From Acidobacteriota bacterium (GTDB taxonomy: Bacteria; Acidobacteriota; Vicinamibacteria; Vicinamibacterales; CAVVIG01): a DNA stretch of 64,000 bases. The stretch covers positions 7,452-71,451 of the forward strand of contig QHWB01000051.1 in assembly GCA_003222395.1 (NCBI GenBank), in the 5' to 3' direction. This document shows positions 6,744 to 63,079 of this stretch, one piece after another. The notes beneath the pieces were generated by a model. That model saw only the letters and a program-made list of their open reading frames with translations, had not been told where the DNA came from and searched no databases. Numbering within the stretch: position 1 is the first letter of the stretch; every line of letters starts with the position of its first letter. A program made the position numbers and the translations under genes.

Positions 6744-6755
6744 AAGCTCGCTCGG

Positions 6756-6861
6756 CTGAAGCCTTCGCGCTACATCGTGGCGCGGCCCGTTCAGTGTGGC
6801 GCGGTCCGTTCAGTGTGACGCGGTCCGTTCAGTGTCGTGGCGCGGCCCTCTCAGGGCCGCG
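6756..6861. repeat. REP-like cluster: CTGAAGCCTTCGCGCTAC (6756-6773), 19-nt unit GGCGCGGYCCGTTCAGTGT x3 (6779-6835), palindrome GCGGCCC-TCTCA-GGGCCGC (6842-6860)
   Basis: Read directly. The rpiB stop codon (6851-6853) lies in the palindrome loop. A near-identical palindrome is at 39131-39156. Confidence 0.85.
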
Positions 6862-7297
6862 ATCGTTCCGCTTCGGCGATCTGATCGATCCGACGCTGAT
6901 GGCGCCCGCCTTCGAACTTCGTGGTCAGCCACAGCGACAGGATTTCATCCGCCAGGCCGAAGGCGACGATGCGGCCACCCATCGAGAGGATGTTCGCATC
7001 GTTGTGTTCGCGCGAGAGCCGCGCCGTGTAGAGATCGTTGCAGAGCGCGGCTCGGATGCCCGCGACCTTGTTCGCTGCGATCTGTTCGCCTTGCCCGCTG
7101 CCGCCGACGACGATGCCGCGGTCGGCGCGGCCATCGGCGACCGCGCGCGCGACGTCGATGCAAATCGGCGGATAGTCGACCGCCGCGTCGCCGTCGGTGC
7201 CGTGATCGTCGACGGCATGTCCGAGCTTCGCGAGTGTCTGCTTGAGATGTTCCTTCAGCGCGAAGCCCGCATGGTCGGCGCCGATGGCGATTCGCAC
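6851..7297 (-). CDS. rpiB: ribose-5-phosphate isomerase B
   Basis: 148 aa, (M)RIAIGADHAGFALK.., GIVVGGSGQGEQIAANK, RpiB/LacA/LacB family; GTG start. Confidence 0.92.
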   Translation of the reverse strand: MRIAIGADHAGFALKEHLKQTLAKLGHAVDDHGTDGDAAVDYPPICIDVARAVADGRADRGIVVGGSGQGEQIAANKVAGIRAALCNDLYTARLSREHNDANILSMGGRIVAFGLADEILSLWLTTKFEGGRHQRRIDQIAEAERSRP

Positions 7298-7320
7298 GAG
7301 CAGCGATTGTACTATACGGT

Positions 7321-7456
7321 TTCACACAGCTATCGGCTCTCGGCTCTCAGCTCTCAGCTCTCAGCTGTCAGCTGATTCACACAGCTATCGGCTCTCAGCT
7401 GATAGCCGATAGCTGAAAGCTGATAGCTGAAAGCTGATAGCTGAAAGCTGATAGCT
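7321..7456. repeat. unit-repeat hairpin, AGCTGATAGCTGAAAGC family (copy 1)
   Basis: Left arm CAGCTATCGGCTCTCGGCTCTCAGCTCTCAGCTCTCAGCTGTCAGCTGA. Right arm CAGCTGATAGCCGATAGCTGAAAGCTGATAGCTGAAAGCTGATAGCTGAAAGCTGATAGCTG. TTCACACAGCTATCGGCTCT occurs twice (7321, 7375). Ends at the rlmI start. Confidence 0.85.
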
Positions 7457-7459
7457 GTG

Positions 7460-8620
7460 ATGCCGAGCGTCGTCATTTCCGCGCGCGGTGAAGAGCGTCT
7501 GCACGGCGGCCATCCGTGGATCTATCGCGCCGATGTCGCCGACGTGCAGGCGTCGGGCGGCGACATCGTGCAGGTGCGCAGCCGGCGCGGCGGCCGTCCG
7601 CTCGGCAGCGCGCTGTTCAGCGATCGATCCCAGATTTCGCTGCGGATGCTGGCGTACGGCGATCACGTTGCCGACGAAACGCTCGTGCGCCGGCGCCTCG
7701 ACGCGGCCATCCGGTTTCGCGCGTCGCTCGAAATCGACGCGACCGCCTATCGCCTCGTCCATGGCGAGGCGGATCTCCTTCCGTCGCTCATCGTCGATCG
7801 ATACGGTGAGCATCTGGTCGTGCAGGCGCTGTCCCAGGGGATGGATCGACTGCTGCCGGTCGTCGTCTCGACGCTCGAGGAGCTCCTTCATCCGAAAGGC
7901 ATCCTCGCGCGAAACGATCCGCGCGCGCGTCAGCTCGAAGGGCTCGAACAGCGGGTCGAGGTGCTCGCCGGCGACGTGCCGGAGACGGTCATGGTGACGG
8001 AAGTCGGAATCGACTACGACGTCGATCTTCGCCGGGGACAGAAGACGGGGCTGTTTCTCGATCAACGCGAGAATCGCGCGGCCGCGGCGGCTTACGCGCG
8101 GGGCCGGCTGCTCGACTGTTTCAGCTACAACGGCGGATTCGCGCTCGTGCTGGGACGGCGCAGCCAGGAGACGATTGCGATCGACGTGTCGGAAGACGCG
8201 GTGGCGCGCGTCCGGCGGAATGCCGCGCGGAACGGCGTCGCCGTCGACGCGCGCGTCGGCAACGTGTTCGACGAGCTCCGCGGCTTCGAACGGACCGCCG
8301 AGCGCTTCGATACGATCGTGCTCGATCCGCCGGCGTTCGCGAAGAACAAGGCGGCGGTCTCCGGCGCGCTGGCCGGCTACAAGGAGATCAACCTGCGCGC
8401 GCTGAAGCTGCTCAATCCCGGCGGCACGCTCGTCACGTGCAGCTGTTCGTACAACGTCAACGAAGCGATGTTCGCCGAAATCGTCTACGATGCGGCCGTC
8501 GACGCGCAGACGCACGTCACTGTCGTCGAGAAGCGGATGCAGGGGCGCGACCATCCGGTGATGCTCGGCGTTCCCGAAACGTACTATTTGAAATGCTTCA
8601 TCCTACGAAAGCTCGCGTGA
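7460..8620 (+). CDS. rlmI: 23S rRNA m5C methyltransferase RlmI-like (PUA + class I SAM MTase)
   Basis: GHPWIYRADV PUA-like N-term, LDCFSYNGGFAL, IVLDPPAFAK SAM-MTase motifs. ATG 7460 preferred over adjacent GTG 7457. Confidence 0.85.
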   Translation: MPSVVISARGEERLHGGHPWIYRADVADVQASGGDIVQVRSRRGGRPLGSALFSDRSQISLRMLAYGDHVADETLVRRRLDAAIRFRASLEIDATAYRLVHGEADLLPSLIVDRYGEHLVVQALSQGMDRLLPVVVSTLEELLHPKGILARNDPRARQLEGLEQRVEVLAGDVPETVMVTEVGIDYDVDLRRGQKTGLFLDQRENRAAAAAYARGRLLDCFSYNGGFALVLGRRSQETIAIDVSEDAVARVRRNAARNGVAVDARVGNVFDELRGFERTAERFDTIVLDPPAFAKNKAAVSGALAGYKEINLRALKLLNPGGTLVTCSCSYNVNEAMFAEIVYDAAVDAQTHVTVVEKRMQGRDHPVMLGVPETYYLKCFILRKLA

Positions 8621-20608: not shown

Positions 20609-20657
20609 GGGATTCGGGATTCGGGATTCGGGATTCGGGATTGGCGATTCGGAATTA
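20609..20657. repeat. heptamer tandem array GGGATTC x7 (last three units degenerate)
   Basis: Units at 20609, 20616, 20623, 20630, 20637 (GGGATTG), 20644 (GCGATTC), 20651 (GGAATTA). Lies between convergent clp and radical-SAM genes. Confidence 0.9.
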
Positions 20658-22086: not shown

Positions 22087-23082
22087 TTACAGCAGATAGG
22101 CGAGCGCAAAACCGATCTGCGCGACGAACATCATGCGGTACATGTGCGCCCACGAGACGTGGTTCTCTTCGACCGCCAGTTCCTCGGGCCTTCGCAGCAT
22201 CAGATAGCAAACATAAAGGCCGTATAAGGTCATGACGATGCCAAGAAGCTGGAGCAACCAGAAGCTGCCGGTGAGGATGCCGAGCCAGGCGCCAACCGGA
22301 ATCATCAGGAACGGGATGACGAACGACGGCGAAATCATCCAGGCCGCCCGGGAGACGCCGAACTGAATCGGCAGCGTGCGGCATCCGCCGCGGCGATCGC
22401 CTTCCATGTCGGCGAAGTCCTTCGTCGTCGTGGCGCCGAGCAGGAACAGCCCGAAGATGGCGCCGATGTACCAGGGCTCGACTCCGACGATCGTTTTCGC
22501 CGACGACCATCCCGCAACCTTCAGCAGGGTGCCGCGCGGAATCGCGATGGTGATGTTCGCCCAGATGCCGAGCCGCTTCGTGCGCAGCGGCGGCACCGAG
22601 TAGATGTACGTGCAGACAACGGCGATTGCGACGAGCCAGAAGCATTCGTGCCTCCCGGCGGACCAGGTCAGCGCAGGCCGATGCGGCTCGACGAGCCACG
22701 CCAGCACCAATGCGATCGCGTACGCCGCAATCGTGAAGCGCCACGCCTGCGCAAACGTCAGGCGTCCGCTCGGCAGCGGCCGCTTCGCCTTGTTCACGCG
22801 ATCGATCTCGAAGTCATAGATCTGATTCAGTGCGTTGTTGCCGGCGTTCAGCATCGCCGCCATGACGGACCCGATGATCGGAGACACGAGGAGCATTGGA
22901 GCCCACGGTTCCCGAGGCACGGCGCCGATGGCGGTCAGCGCCCCGGAGATGAAGCCGAGCGCCGGTGCGACCAGCGTAAAGGGGCGCGCGAGATCGATGT
23001 AGGCGCGGACGGGGTTCGAGGGGCCGGATTCCGGGCTCGGGGTCCGGAGTTGCGGGTTCTTGGTTCTGGGTTCGGGGTTCAT
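22087..23082 (-). CDS. UbiA-family prenyltransferase, ChlG/BchG/DGGGP-synthase-like
   Basis: NALNQIYDFEIDRVNKAKRPLPSGRL (NxxxDxxxD) and KDFADMEGDRRGGCRTLPIQFG (DxxxD) motifs, about 8 TM helices. ATGA overlap with upstream gene. Confidence 0.85.
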   Translation of the reverse strand: MNPEPRTKNPQLRTPSPESGPSNPVRAYIDLARPFTLVAPALGFISGALTAIGAVPREPWAPMLLVSPIIGSVMAAMLNAGNNALNQIYDFEIDRVNKAKRPLPSGRLTFAQAWRFTIAAYAIALVLAWLVEPHRPALTWSAGRHECFWLVAIAVVCTYIYSVPPLRTKRLGIWANITIAIPRGTLLKVAGWSSAKTIVGVEPWYIGAIFGLFLLGATTTKDFADMEGDRRGGCRTLPIQFGVSRAAWMISPSFVIPFLMIPVGAWLGILTGSFWLLQLLGIVMTLYGLYVCYLMLRRPEELAVEENHVSWAHMYRMMFVAQIGFALAYLL

Positions 23083-30880: not shown

Positions 30881-31010
30881 CAGGGCAGAGGGCAGAGGGC
30901 ATAGGGCAGAGGGCATAGGGCAGGCAGAGGGCAGACGGCCGAGGGCAGGCAGAGGGCAAAGCGCATAGGGACGCGCAGTGTGCCCTCTGCCCTTTGCCCT
31001 GTGCCCTATC
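30881..31010. repeat. unit-repeat hairpin, GGGCAGAG/GGGCATAG units with shorter complementary arm
   Basis: Left arm, about 12 units (30881-30975). Right arm TGCCCTCTGCCCTTTGCCCTGTGCCCTATC (30981-31010). The stop codon of the kinase gene (31006-31008) lies in the right arm. Confidence 0.85.
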
Positions 31011-32791: not shown

Positions 32792-34974
32792 CGCGTGCTT
32801 CGTTGATGTTGTCGATCGCGCTCGGCGCCTCGGCGTGTGCGAGCGCACCGCCGGCCGCCGCGCCGCCTCGAGCGCCGGCTCTCACCTTCGAGCAGAAGAT
32901 GGCGTCGATTCTCCGGCTCGAGGATCAGCGCGTGCTGCGCGACCCGGCGCCGCAGGTGCCGCCGGCGACGACGGCGCCGTCGCGCGGCCGGAATGCGCCG
33001 GTCGTCGTCGTGCCCCCGCCTCCGCCGCCGGATCTCACCGCGATGCTGCGCGACGAAGAGGCGCGCATTCGCCGCCGCGCGGCGCTGGCCATCGGCCACG
33101 TCGGGCTCGGCGGCGGCGTGCCGCCGCTCGTGGCGCTGCTCTCGTCCGAAATGGATCCGGAAGTCCGGCAGATGGCCGCGTTCGCCCTCGGATTGCTCGG
33201 CGACAAGCGCGCCCGCGACCCGCTCGTCGCGGCGCTTGCGGACCCGGCGCCCATGGTGCAGGGCAGCGCGGCCGAAGCGCTGGGGCTGATTGGCGACGCA
33301 TCGACCGCCGACCCGATCGGGCGAATGGTCGGTCAGATAGTCCAGTCGGGCGCGCTCGCCGAGATGCCGGCGGAAGATGACGACGCACGGCGCGACACGC
33401 CGGTGGCCGCGGCACGCCTCGGCATGTACGCGTTGGTCCGGCTGAAGGCGTATCCGCAACTCGCGTCGGCGGTGCTCGACGCGAACGGTCAGCCGCGCGT
33501 GCGATGGTGGCAGCTCGCGTTCGCGCTTCAACGGCTCGAGGAGAGGCGCGCGTTGCCGGCGCTGCTGGCGTTCGCGAAAGACTCGAATCCATTCGCGCGG
33601 GCCTTCGCCGTCAAAGGCCTCGCCACGCTGAAGGACAAGTCGGCGCTGCCGGTGCTGATGCCGCTGCTGTCGAGCGGCGATCGATCCGTCCTCATCGAGA
33701 CCATTCGCGCGCTGGGACGCATCGGCGATCCATCGGCGGCCGCGCCGCTGCTCAAGTTCGTCAGCGCCGCCGATACCGATCCGCAGGTGCGCGTCGAAGC
33801 GATCGGCGCGCTCTCGGGCGTCGGCGCGGCCGACAACGGCGCCATCAATGATGCGCTGCTGGACCTGCTCTCCGATCCCAGTCCGATAATTCGCGCCGCG
33901 GCGCTGCGGTCGACGGCGGCGATCGATCCGGAGAACTTCGTCACGATCCTGTCCGGCCTCGATCCCGATCCGCACTGGAGCGTGCGCGCGGCGCTGGCGA
34001 CAACGCTGGGCACGCTGCCGTCCGAGATCGGATTGCCGCGCCTGCGTCAGATGTTGGGCGACACGGACCAGCGCGTCGTCCCATCGGTGCTGGCCGCGCT
34101 GGTGAAGCAGAAGGCGCCCGACGCGGCGGCGATCCTCCTCGAGCGGCTGAAGGCCGACGATCTCGCCGTGCGTGCCGCGGCGGCCAGCGCCATCGGCGAG
34201 CTGAAACCGCCGGGCGGCGATCAGGCCCTCGCGGATGCGTACCGTCTCGGCCAGCGCGACGCGATGTACACGGCCCGGGCGGCTGCGCTCGCCGCGCTGC
34301 AGCAATACGGCGCTGCCGCAGCGTTGCCGGTGCTTCAGACCGCCCTGACGGACAAGGATTGGACGATTCGGATCCGTGCAGCCGGCTTGATCAAGCAGCT
34401 CGATCCGAATCGGATCGGCGGCGACATCGACGCGGCGATCCGTCCGGCGCCGACGACAGTCCCGGCAGAAACGTATCAGGCGCCGCGGCTCGTCACTCCC
34501 CCCGTGTCGACGCAGGTGTATGTCGAGACCGATCGCGGCACGATTCAGATCGAGCTCGCCGTCATCGACGCGCCGCTCACCGTCGAGAACTTCATCTCGC
34601 TCGCGCGCAAAGGTTTCTTCGACGGTCTGAGCATCCATCGAGTCGTGCCGGACTTCGTCGTGCAGGACGGCGATCCGCGCGGCGACGGCGAGGGCGGTCC
34701 CGGCTACACGATTCGCGACGAGTTCAACGAGCGTCCGTATCTGCGCGGCACGGTCGGGATGGCGCTCGATCCCTGGCCCGACACCGGCGGCAGCCAATGG
34801 TTCATCACACTTTCACCGCAGCCGCACCTCGATGCGAAGTACACCGTCTTCGGACGCGTCGTCGCCGGAATGGACGTCGTCGATCGGATTCAGCAGTGGG
34901 ACGTGATTCGTCGCGTTCGTGTGTGGGATGGACAGACGTTGACGGCGTCGGAGGCGCGTAGGATCAGGGATTAG
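32788..34974 (+). CDS. HEAT-repeat lipoprotein fused to a cyclophilin-type peptidyl-prolyl isomerase
   Basis: ATG 32788 overlaps upstream stop (ATGA). LGASAC lipobox-like signal, repeated DPxVRxxAAxALG HEAT units. C-terminal IHRVVPDFVVQDGDPRGDGEGGPGYT cyclophilin domain. Confidence 0.85.
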   Translation: MTRASLMLSIALGASACASAPPAAAPPRAPALTFEQKMASILRLEDQRVLRDPAPQVPPATTAPSRGRNAPVVVVPPPPPPDLTAMLRDEEARIRRRAALAIGHVGLGGGVPPLVALLSSEMDPEVRQMAAFALGLLGDKRARDPLVAALADPAPMVQGSAAEALGLIGDASTADPIGRMVGQIVQSGALAEMPAEDDDARRDTPVAAARLGMYALVRLKAYPQLASAVLDANGQPRVRWWQLAFALQRLEERRALPALLAFAKDSNPFARAFAVKGLATLKDKSALPVLMPLLSSGDRSVLIETIRALGRIGDPSAAAPLLKFVSAADTDPQVRVEAIGALSGVGAADNGAINDALLDLLSDPSPIIRAAALRSTAAIDPENFVTILSGLDPDPHWSVRAALATTLGTLPSEIGLPRLRQMLGDTDQRVVPSVLAALVKQKAPDAAAILLERLKADDLAVRAAAASAIGELKPPGGDQALADAYRLGQRDAMYTARAAALAALQQYGAAAALPVLQTALTDKDWTIRIRAAGLIKQLDPNRIGGDIDAAIRPAPTTVPAETYQAPRLVTPPVSTQVYVETDRGTIQIELAVIDAPLTVENFISLARKGFFDGLSIHRVVPDFVVQDGDPRGDGEGGPGYTIRDEFNERPYLRGTVGMALDPWPDTGGSQWFITLSPQPHLDAKYTVFGRVVAGMDVVDRIQQWDVIRRVRVWDGQTLTASEARRIRD

Positions 34975-35006
34975 GGATTGGGATTGGGATTGGGGATTAG
35001 GGATTC
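34961..35006. repeat. GGGATT(A) tandem array (7 units) spanning the stop codon of the HEAT-PPIase gene
   Basis: GGATCA GGGATTA GGGATT GGGATT GGGATT GGGGATTA GGGATTC; stop TAG at 34972-34974 lies inside it. Confidence 0.9.
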
Positions 35007-40795: not shown

Positions 40796-40918
40796 AGCTT
40801 TCAGCTTTCGGCTGTCCGCTATCAGCTGGTGCTGAAAACTGATAACCGAATGCTGAAAACAAAAGCTGATAGCCGAGAGCTGATAGCTGAAAGCCGATAG
40901 CTGAAAGCCGATAACTGT
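40794..40918. repeat. unit-repeat hairpin, AGCTGATAGCTGAAAGC family (copy 2), between secD and secF
   Basis: Left arm GAAGCTTTCAGCTTTCGGCTGTCCGCTATCAGC. Right arm GCTGATAGCCGAGAGCTGATAGCTGAAAGCCGATAGCTGAAAGCCGATAAC. Same unit family as 7321-7456. Confidence 0.85.
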
Positions 40919-40921
40919 CAT

Positions 40922-41935
40922 ATGCACATTTTCAAGCACACGAATTACGACTTCCTCCGCTGGCGCGTCCACGCGCTCGTGCTGTCGTGGGCCATCATCA
41001 TCGCCGGCGTCATCGCAATCTGGACCAAAGGCATTCCAGAAGGCGTCGAGTTTGCCGGCGGCACGGTCGTCATCGAGAGGTTCGATCGACCGGTGTCGGT
41101 GCAGCAGGTGCGCCAGGCGCTGGACAAGAACTTCCCGGGCGGCGGCCAGAACACCATCGTTCAGGTGTACGGCGATCCGTCGCAGAACCAGGTGATGGTC
41201 CGCGTGCCGACGATCGGCGCCGAGTCCGGGCAGTCGCTCAGCACGATCGCGAGCCAGGTCGACGAGGCCCTGAAGAAGGGAGGCATCGGTACGCCGGAGC
41301 GGGTGGGCACCGAAATCGTCGGTCCGACGGTCGGCGCCGAGCTGAAGAGCCGGGGCATCTGGGCGACGCTGCTCTCGCTCATCGGCATCCTCGCGTATCT
41401 GGCGTTCCGATTCCAATTCAGCTTCGGCGTCGGCGCGGTCGTCGCGACGATTCACGACCTGCTGATCACCCTCGCGTTCCTCGCCTTCTTCCGTTACGAC
41501 CTGTCGCTGAACGTCATCGCCGCCATCCTGACGATGACCGGCTACTCGACCAACGACACGATCGTCATCTTCGACCGAATCCGCGAGAACCTGCGGTCGA
41601 TGCGCCGCGACTCGCTGGACCACATCATCAACGTGTCGGTGAACCAGACGCTGGGCCGGACGGTCATCACGTCGGGCACGGCGCTGCTGACGGCGCTCGC
41701 GCTCTTCTTCTTCGGCGGCGAGGTGCTGCACGGGTTCGCGTTCACGATGGTGGTCGGCATCATTACGGGCACGTACTCGAGCGTCTTCATCGCGGCCGCG
41801 ATCGTCAGCTTCTGGCGCGGCAGCGCGCCGACGCGCGCGGCGGCCCACGCTCCGGCCTCGTCTGTGCCGGCGGTCGCGGCGCCGCAGCAGCCGCAGCGAA
41901 AAGTGAAGCCGCAGCGAAAGGCACGCGCCTCATAA
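40922..41935 (+). CDS. secF: protein translocase subunit SecF
   Basis: 337 aa. SecF periplasmic loop plus 6 TM, GYSTNDTIVIFDRIRE. Confidence 0.95.
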   Translation: MHIFKHTNYDFLRWRVHALVLSWAIIIAGVIAIWTKGIPEGVEFAGGTVVIERFDRPVSVQQVRQALDKNFPGGGQNTIVQVYGDPSQNQVMVRVPTIGAESGQSLSTIASQVDEALKKGGIGTPERVGTEIVGPTVGAELKSRGIWATLLSLIGILAYLAFRFQFSFGVGAVVATIHDLLITLAFLAFFRYDLSLNVIAAILTMTGYSTNDTIVIFDRIRENLRSMRRDSLDHIINVSVNQTLGRTVITSGTALLTALALFFFGGEVLHGFAFTMVVGIITGTYSSVFIAAAIVSFWRGSAPTRAAAHAPASSVPAVAAPQQPQRKVKPQRKARAS

Positions 41936-42006
41936 GTACGAAGTTTGAAGTACGGAGTACGAAGTTCTCGGGCTTTCGTACTTCAGACTTCGTACTTCGA
42001 ACTTTC
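41936..42006. repeat. unit-repeat hairpin, AGTACGAAGT units, between secF and uppP
   Basis: AGTACGAAGTTTGAAGTACGGAGTACGAAG-TTCTCGGG-CTTTCGTACTTCAGACTTCGTACTTCGAACTTT. Confidence 0.8.
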
Positions 42007-47677: not shown

Positions 47678-47690
47678 CGCGACGCTTACA

Positions 47691-47779
47691 TTGCTGATTG
47701 TTGATTGCTGATTGTTGATTGATTGGTCGACCCCCAGTCAGCAATCAATCAGCAATCTGAAATCAGCAATCTGCAATCG
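47691..47779. repeat. unit-repeat hairpin, TTGCTGATTG units, between exbB and exbD
   Basis: Left arm TTGCTGATTGTTGATTGCTGATTGTTGATTGATTGG. Right arm GTCAGCAATCAATCAGCAATCTGAAATCAGCAATCTGCAATCG. Followed by AAGGAG and ATG 47795. Confidence 0.85.
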
Positions 47780-62993: not shown

Positions 62994-63013
62994 TGGTCTC
63001 CCTTCCGCTCGGC

Positions 63014-63054
63014 TGAAAGCCTCGCTCTACAAGCGGTAGCGCGAGCCTTTTAGG
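63014..63054. repeat. REP-like inverted pair CTGAAAGCCTCGCTCTAC / GTAGCGCGAGCCTTTTAG
   Basis: 15 of 18 complementary. Same core as 43480-43526. Confidence 0.75.
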
Positions 63055-63079
63055 CGAGCGTCCGTTGCAAGCGCTCTTT

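Follow-up and report, generated by a model that had tools for sequence, protein, structure and literature searches.

In Xanthomonas, GGGAATC repeats of the general form (GGGANTN)n are about 90% intergenic, and each genome has 70-75 pairs of them in convergent, inverted orientation (Rehm et al. 2015, PMC4692102). These arrays are located nearer to the upstream ORF's end, and their length and sequence vary extensively between close species (PMC4692102). For the STRR heptanucleotides of heterocystous cyanobacteria and for long SSRs with units of 5-11 nt, slippage has been proposed as the origin (Mrazek et al. 2007, as cited in PMC4679880 and PMC4692102). In marine Beggiatoaceae, a single unit, TAACTGA, occurs as direct repeats of 2-6 copies, for which a translational role was proposed (MacGregor 2015, PMC4679880). 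Hairpins with an associated gene are represented by the REPIN-RAYT system (Bertels and Rainey 2011, PMC3116915) and by the 23S rRNA intervening sequences with an S23p ORF, which are found in Coxiella and Leptospira and are sited in helix 25 or 45 (PMC4990558). The stem of an intervening sequence juxtaposes the flanks and RNase III removes the insert from the RNA, so that the insertion is tolerated (PMC4990558).

In this study, we analyzed a hairpin in a window of 64,000 nt (the window is the whole stretch of DNA analyzed) from a Vicinamibacterales genome. The first-pass annotation had described it as a 136-nt hairpin built from repeated units at positions 7321-7456 and had stated that no known class of element fits. 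However, paired inverted heptamer arrays located after genes have been published for Xanthomonas (PMC4692102). In our literature search, we found neither a heptamer-hairpin class described for Vicinamibacteria nor a published connection of heptamer arrays with PF05635 proteins.

Results

A heptamer-array hairpin fills the rpiB-rlmI spacer

The features of the locus and of related elements are listed in Table 1. TRF and folding confirmed the hairpin, and its right end was corrected from 7456 to 7459. The element thus reaches the last base before the ATG of rlmI at 7460, in agreement with the earlier statement that it abuts the start codon. TRF reported CAGCTCT (6.7 copies) at 7327-7373 and AGCTGAT (8.7 copies) at 7397-7457; the latter segment can alternatively be read as a 14-nt repeat, AGCTGAAAGCTGAT, with 4.4 copies and 95% match. 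The left arm had been described as the approximate complement of the right arm, and the two arms, 49 nt each, are 86% complementary. The stem of the 135-nt hairpin consists of 6-bp helices parted by a 1x1 mismatch every 7 nt, and our results support the earlier proposal that the repeated units allow many alternative pairing registers. Folding of both strands, which had been suggested as a check, gave a strong hairpin in each case: the RNA of 7321-7459 folds at -92.9 kcal/mol on the plus strand (z -9.7, 0/200 shuffles as good) and at -89.7 kcal/mol on the minus strand (z -8.6). The DNA fold of the same segment is -48.4 kcal/mol (z -8.5).

The 20-mer TTCACACAGCTATCGGCTCT, which had been noted twice in the element, has exactly these two occurrences in the whole 7.74-Mb genome, and its second copy is a sign that part of the element was recently duplicated or nested internally. 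In-place remodelling of the element by replication slippage is seen in the 14-nt super-repeat and in the repetition of the 20-mer. The flagged copy does not contain an ORF. An Rfam scan of the element returned nothing at or above the gathering threshold; there were only generic long-hairpin matches to miRNA precursor models, with at most 45 bits against thresholds of 50-200. No intrinsic terminator (GC-rich stem and U tract) was found in a scan of 7150-7600, and the element is located between two divergent starts.

Table 1 Features of the flagged hairpin, its neighbors and related elements. Positions are those of the window unless another sequence is named.
Feature	Position	Strand	Remark
Whole heptamer-array hairpin element, AGCT family, gene-less copy	7321..7459	.	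fills the rpiB-rlmI spacer
5′ arm	7325..7373	+	(C/G)AGCT-N-T units: CAGCTAT, CGGCTCT x2, CAGCTCT x3, CAGCTGT
3′ arm	7411..7459	+	AGCTGAA/AGCTGAT alternating, 14-nt super-repeat x4.4, AGCTGTG at the end
Inner apical hairpin	7382..7415	+	17-nt arms, 94% complementary, without loop
First copy of the exact 20-mer TTCACACAGCTATCGGCTCT	7321..7340	+	2 copies only in the genome
Second copy of the 20-mer TTCACACAGCTATCGGCTCT	7376..7395	+	55-nt period from the first
rpiB, ribose-5-phosphate isomerase B, divergent neighbor	6851..7297	-	Pfam LacAB_rpiB, E 2.5e-56
rlmI-like SAM-dependent rRNA methyltransferase	7460..8620	+	PUA and Methyltrans_SAM domains
ATTGTACTAT, putative overlapping divergent -10 boxes	7306..7315	.	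TACTAT for rlmI; TACAAT, minus strand, for rpiB
Second AGCT-family hairpin, fills the secD-secF junction	40796..40918	.	arms about 40797-40827 / 40878-40908, 50-nt loop
AGCT-family gene-bearing copy, upstream of radC	G000 C118:141033-141624		PF05635/TIGR02436 gene between the arms

The rpiB-rlmI junction changes rapidly among relatives

About 60 relatives, comprising genomes and soil-metagenome contigs (Vicinamibacterales MAGs according to their record titles), have the sequence ATTGTACTAT at a constant distance from the start of rpiB, and its conservation covers the order-wide orthologous spacers L002-L100 and L132-L211. When the rpiB-rlmI spacer is shortest (25-30 nt), the distance from ATTGTACTAT to the rlmI start codon is about 7 nt. 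We read ATTGTACTAT as probably representing overlapping divergent -10 boxes of two leaderless or near-leaderless genes, a promoter role proposed from the sequence. The leaderless reading fits the genome-wide peak of TANNNT 6-9 nt upstream of predicted starts and the scarcity of Shine-Dalgarno-like words, which are present in only 26% of the genes in the genome. A simple consensus scan gave no full sigma-70 -35/-10 pair. A promoter inside the element was considered and rejected: the consensus scan was negative, and visual inspection showed no TANNNT box at 6-9 nt upstream of the ATG. The flagged hairpin starts 6 nt past the -10 box and runs to the rlmI ATG, and so takes up the whole gap between them. 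A transcript from about 7 nt past TACTAT would consist of 3 free bases, the 135-nt hairpin and AUG.

The first-pass annotation had proposed a comparison of orthologous spacers. Array content does vary among relatives. The genomes of the same genus (G002 and G003) have a spacer of only 25-30 nt without an array. Relative to these genomes, the element is an insertion, which had been missed. We then assigned the spacer states of 57 lineages, which were placed on an rlmI tree: 23 lineages have a minimal spacer, 12 have GTTC-type arrays, 5 have AGCT-type arrays and 17 have other inserts. These states are scattered over the tree, with 25 state changes in all and 5 required for AGCT, and even sister lineages differ (a minimal spacer in L035 and a GTTC array in L036). 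The rpiB-rlmI junction is a hotspot with fast turnover, and slippage is active in the arrays. The best metagenome relatives are only about 83% identical in RlmI. The short spacers of relatives contain single unit-like words (GCTTTCA, GGTTC); therefore, at this junction local expansion and contraction fits as well as insertion. The largest insert seen at the junction is the 319-nt spacer of the metagenome contig Ga0066388_100145698 (L059), which is one giant GGGTTCN/NGAACCC hairpin.

Two successive junctions at secD and secF contain heptamer hairpins

The secD-secF spacer had been assigned to the same unit family as the flagged element. This assignment is correct, and the spacer folds at -52.7 kcal/mol (z -5.1). 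The hairpin begins at the base right after the TGA of secD. In 24/30 relatives, the spacer is 2-5 nt long and TAGCCATG-like, and we call this state ancestral; in the same-genus G002 and G003 it is 5-8 nt long without a hairpin. At this junction, AGCT hairpins are carried only by the source genome and, among the 30 relatives, by G005, which belongs to another genus. The junction downstream of secF is occupied by an AAGTACG/CGTACTT heptamer hairpin at 41934-42004, which begins on the stop codon of secF and leaves 3 nt to the following gene. Thus, hairpins of two different families occupy the two junctions on either side of secF.

It had also been noted that both AGCT copies of the window end in GATA(G/A)CTGT just before an ATG. 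Both copies do end in this way, but the sequence is not a terminus of the family: among its 43 genomic occurrences, the only three array ends are those of the flagged element, of the secD-secF copy and of one further array (C88).

Heptamer arrays form families throughout the genome

TRF was applied to the 7.74-Mb assembly together with our own codon-bias gene calls (6003 genes, start codons approximate). The 497 arrays of period 7 with at least 3.5 copies are the commonest class of tandem repeat, more than twice any other period. They fall into 365 loci, 106 of which are inverted pairs (hairpins). A genome-wide search for the unit had been proposed, and the AGCTNTC/AGCTGAN unit (AGCT family) was found at about 45 loci including the secD-secF spacer, far beyond the two that had been known. 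A handful of unit families makes up most arrays, and the AGCT unit recurs in other genera.

Of 123 pairs of adjacent arrays, 104 have units that are reverse complementary to each other with at most one mismatch. Within each family, the order of the two arms is fixed, independent of the strand, in 105/106 hairpins. Furthermore, one position of the seven holds almost all the variation in every family, and this position is common to all loci of the family. Its entropy is about 1.4 bits, as compared with less than 0.9 bits at the other six positions, the latter value including some cross-family mixing. The fixed arm order and the common variable position point to common descent and not to independent origin. 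In the stems, mismatch is 48% at the variable phase and 6.6% at the other six (241 mismatches vs 177 ± 5.5 in shuffles), and the position opposite N pairs no better than chance. DGR-like adenine mutagenesis was rejected as the cause of the free position: other adenines of the unit are 89-100% conserved, and the free position of the GGGATT family is C/G. On the sense strand of 71 hairpins, G.U and A.C oppositions number 50 and 48; thus, no RNA-strand-specific selection or pairing constraint is detectable in them. Super-repeats are present inside individual arms, and each arm evolves independently of the other.

Relative to transcription, neither the orientation of single arrays (AGCT 10:12, ATTGCTG 10:15, GGGATT 10:7) nor the length of the arms (32 vs 35, p 0.56) is biased. 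The numbers of intergenic loci at tandem, convergent and divergent junctions follow the abundance of each junction type, and the probability of an array per intergenic region is 3.4-7.8% regardless of the length of the region. Genome-wide, hairpins follow stop codons closely (median gap 4 nt, 90th percentile 12 nt), a measure that does not apply to the rlmI copy, which lies between two start codons. In long intergenic regions, 28/63 arrays are within 15 nt of a stop codon, as compared with 6.9 expected. These figures show that the arrays prefer gene junctions. MITE features were sought in the AGCT-family loci: there are no shared termini, no duplicated flanks or target-site duplications, and length is variable.

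Other families are also seen in the window. G-rich heptamer arrays (GGGATTC, GGGTTCN, GGATTAG) are located at gene ends at 20609-20656, 23012-23080 and 34961-35005, and wherever the G-rich families form hairpins, the G-rich units make up the 5′ arm without exception. A hairpin of AGGGCAG/TGCCCTC is located between two minus-strand genes at 30882-31007. At 47690-47778, there is a hairpin of the ATTGCTG family with the complex non-periodic termini GAGATTGCTGATTTCAGATT ... AATCTGAAATCNGCAATCAGCAATCTC; the TGA within the terminus of this family is the stop codon of the upstream gene at several loci. Upstream of glyA (SHMT, minus strand), three 19-nt tandem repeats of the CACTGAACGGRCCGCGYCA type (6744-6835, 95% match) are followed by one copy of the 25-nt REP that is also present at 63006-63060, right before the glyA start.

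PF05635 genes are located between inverted arrays

The AGCT family has a gene-bearing copy, which the first-pass annotation did not include. Its gene (C118:141082-141543) encodes a protein of 154 aa that matches TIGR02436 (E 2.5e-32), and its arms are an AGCT(A/G)TC array and then an AGCTGA(A/C) array, the same arm order as in the flagged hairpin. Inverted arrays enclose 6/6 PF05635 genes (23S-rRNA-IVS/Avd-like four-helix bundle) of the genome; the unit family differs from gene to gene, and two of the six families are rare. Members of the PF05635 family also occur in 23S rRNA intervening sequences and, as Avd, in diversity-generating retroelements. The cassette of the ATTGCTG family (G000 C25:182599-183187) has complex non-periodic termini that are common to at least 8 gene-less loci. 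The AGGGCAG/TGCCCTC family flanks another PF05635 gene (G000 C25:214616-215296), where the right arm has 20 units. For AAGTACG and CTGGTTG, which are abundant families, no PF05635 gene was found in the source genome.

In an unbiased scan for inverted array pairs 250-1500 nt apart, 5/8 loci with a gap of 490-710 nt enclose PF05635. The other gene-enclosing pairs that we checked contain the rpsG, rpsF-rpsR, CAAX protease and PCYCGC protein genes; these are ordinary genes with arrays of an abundant family in the adjacent junctions, and the pairs are not cassettes. In 15 other Vicinamibacterales genomes, clear inverted arrays were present at 20/26 PF05635 homologues (TRF units read by eye).

The radC-linked cassette is syntenic in G016, G017, G005 and G023, which belong to four other genera. 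The cassettes of G016 and G017 have 61-66% protein identity and AGCT arms; those of G023 and G005 have 38-40% protein identity and arms one substitution away from AGCT. Of 40 relatives, only G036, G017, G023 and G016 are rich in AGCT arrays, and the best homologues of the AGCT-cassette protein are those of G017, G016 and G036, three of these four genomes; this co-occurrence statistic is weak because kin genomes are not independent. G023 has 38 array matches but a homologue only 38% identical, and G029 has a 41% identical homologue without AGCT arrays. A control pattern, AGCTGAN read backwards (AGTCGA-type arrays), gave 30 matches in G023 and 15 in G036. Therefore, a mirror-image unit family is also present there.

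By blastn, gene-less AGCT copies have only the arms in common with the cassette and contain no remnants of the ORF region, and the interior sequence of each of the six cassettes is found nowhere else in the genome. Thus, at the sensitivity of blastn, the gene-less hairpins are not internally deleted cassettes. Neither termini, nor target-site duplications, nor ORF remnants support the gene-less AGCT copies as deletion derivatives or transposed copies.

The closest solved structure to the AGCT-cassette protein is XCC0516 from Xanthomonas (2GSC, E 6e-18). In Xanthomonas campestris, GGGAATC repeat #15 overlaps the start codon of XCC0516 (XCC0516-XCC0517; PMC4692102 supplement).

Discussion

Proposed origin of the hairpin

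We consider it fairly probable that the flagged hairpin is a gene-less member of a dispersed family of palindromic '6+1' heptamer arrays, IVS-like or REPIN-like, which has been remodelled by slippage and is transcribed as the leader of rlmI. In the AGCT family, the 5′ arm repeats AGCT-N-TC and the 3′ arm GA-N-AGCT. After the split from the same-genus relatives, the rlmI copy would have arrived in the gap that separates the rlmI ATG from the -10 box of the rpiB/rlmI promoter, which would be bidirectional and probably leaderless, and replication slippage would then have reshaped it in place. Transcription most likely yields the hairpin as the entire 5′ leader of rlmI, and folding of this leader would bring the 5′ end and the AUG together. 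In addition, RNase III may trim the hairpin, as with intervening sequences (PMC4990558). We propose that the insertion is tolerated because the flanks are juxtaposed by folding and possibly because of this trimming. As the same family has a gene-bearing copy upstream of radC, the layout parallels that of REPIN-RAYT and that of ORF-bearing and ORF-less rRNA intervening sequences.

We also suggest, as a possibility on the unlikely side, that PF05635 four-helix-bundle proteins (S23p/Avd-like) are the trans-acting partners of the '6+1' arrays. Each paralogue would recognise a six-base word of its own, and the proteins may promote or sustain the spreading of array hairpins to positions right beside stop and start codons. 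To our knowledge, no nuclease, transposase or polymerase activity is known for PF05635 proteins.

Other explanations

The arrays might instead be pure simple-sequence repeats, generated and lost in place by slippage from short local seeds, in line with the long-SSR hypothesis of Mrazek, and turned into hairpins by fold-back template switching, with nothing mobilised. PF05635 genes would then merely settle, or survive best, in the loops of existing hairpins, like intervening sequences in rRNA helix loops. The clear activity of slippage, with super-repeats within single arms and arms that evolve independently, agrees with this explanation, as do the very fast turnover (25 state changes on the 57-tip rlmI tree; L035 vs L036), the single unit-like word held by minimal rpiB-rlmI spacers, the AGCT family without conserved termini or target-site duplications, and the unbiased orientation and arm length relative to transcription. 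However, it predicts that both arm orders occur and that the variable position drifts from locus to locus, whereas the order is fixed in 105/106 hairpins and the position is the same everywhere. Nor does it readily explain why a few unit families dominate, with the AGCT unit recurring in other genera, why one complex terminus of the ATTGCTG family is common to at least 8 loci and to its PF05635 cassette, or why six PF05635 genes are found in six families, two of them rare, which is unlike random settling in loops. Furthermore, the empty secD-secF site TAGCCATG offers no seed, yet AGCT hairpins were gained there in two genera. We regard this explanation as doubtful.

We are still more skeptical that the hairpin is a selected cis-regulatory RNA, which would stabilize rlmI mRNA or gate its translation, with the secD-secF copy tuning cistron coupling or stoichiometry. 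The predicted transcript starts about 3 nt before a hairpin of -99 kcal/mol that ends at AUG, and 5′-terminal stem-loops stabilize mRNA, for example E. coli ompA. Some array is present at the rpiB-rlmI junction in about half of the sampled lineages, and for Beggiatoa and Nostoc, a role in regulating translation was suggested for heptamer arrays beside start codons (PMC4679880; bioRxiv 10.1101/2022.06.06.494920). Against a regulatory role, the hairpin is absent from same-genus genomes, and the junction in close relatives contains unrelated unit families, direct arrays or nothing. The G.U and A.C counts (50 to 48 in 71 hairpins) and the chance-level pairing opposite N also argue against it, and the element has neither an Rfam match above threshold nor a terminator-like tail. 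We saw no evidence for a function specific to the rlmI locus. A last alternative, a REP/REPIN element mobilised by a RAYT (Y1 HUH transposase), derives from the earlier remark that the unit resembles the REP core GGCTGAAAGCC at 63012. The 9-mer GCTGAAAGC is common to the flagged element and to the REP at 63006-63060, and both behave as intergenic hairpins located after genes. This likeness proved coincidental, because the site at 63012 belongs to an inverted, REPIN-like doublet (63006-63060) of another repeat, the 25-nt REP GTAGCGCGAGCCTTTCAGGCGAGCG, which occurs 543 times in the genome. The sole Y1_Tnp/RAYT gene (PF01797; C106:59066-59383 within G000 C106:58700-59800) has arrays of GTAGCGCGAGCCTTTCAGGCGAGCG on both sides, and the heptamer arrays do not have a fixed-length palindromic unit. 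A relationship with REP/RAYT is thus effectively refuted.

Implications

STRRs (since 1990), 'long SSRs' (since 2007) and the S23p proteins of rRNA intervening sequences have long been unexplained, and this genome ties them together. A split heptamer hairpin encloses each PF05635 gene, and the unit family of the hairpin also occurs in dispersed, gene-less copies at gene junctions. Synteny of the AGCT cassette extends over five genera, in which arms and protein have diverged together. For annotation, the '6+1' arrays account for many long spacer hairpins of Vicinamibacterales that vary among relatives and abut stop or start codons. If PF05635 proteins do act as partners of the arrays, the result would be a REPIN-RAYT-like system built on a non-nuclease protein, and the cyanobacterial STRRs, the Xanthomonas GGGAATC repeats and the ORF-bearing rRNA intervening sequences would be explained at once. 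The question 'why heptamers?' becomes testable at the bench, through the binding of each protein to its own six-base word and through the mobilisation or stabilisation of arrays.

Comparison with known systems

The arrays share with the Beggiatoaceae TAACTGA repeats a position a few nt upstream of the starts of genes without canonical ribosome-binding sites. However, the TAACTGA arrays are direct and form no hairpins, and the arrays of this study have no orientation bias relative to transcription. A genome-wide excess of intergenic tandem heptamers with several unit families per genome is also seen with STRRs and long SSRs. In the accounts covered by our literature search, STRRs are mostly direct arrays, and hairpin pairing, fixed arm order, abutment on stop codons and gene-bearing copies fall outside the description.

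The REPIN-RAYT system resembles the heptamer families in its hundreds of dispersed intergenic hairpin repeats and in a single-copy, vertically inherited gene that is flanked by the same repeat family, the family being specific to the gene copy. In contrast, the gene in our case encodes a four-helix bundle and not a Y1 HUH nuclease, the arrays are variable in length and not fixed palindromes of 20-40 nt, and the real REP/RAYT system of the source genome is a separate family. Intervening sequences of 23S rRNA are likewise selfish-looking inserts: their terminal inverted repeats pair into a long stem whose loop contains a PF05635 ORF, and ORF-less versions are found. A PF05635 ORF within long terminal inverted repeats is present at C118:141033-141624 and at all 6 PF05635 genes. 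Unlike intervening sequences, the copies of this study are located between protein-coding genes and not in helix 25/45 of 23S rRNA, their stems are tandem heptamer arrays, the flagged copy has no ORF, and processing by RNase III is putative.

The GGGAATC repeats of Xanthomonas differ from the present arrays in several respects. The source genome belongs to the Acidobacteriota (Vicinamibacterales), the AGCTNTC unit has no G-quadruplex potential, many unit families coexist in one genome, and PMC4692102 drew no link to PF05635. However, both types consist of tandem 7-nt units with conserved and free positions, are about 90% intergenic and form convergent pairs capable of making a stem-loop. Nearness to the end of the upstream ORF and rapid variation among related genomes are also found here, and in Xanthomonas, too, an array abuts a PF05635 gene, XCC0516.
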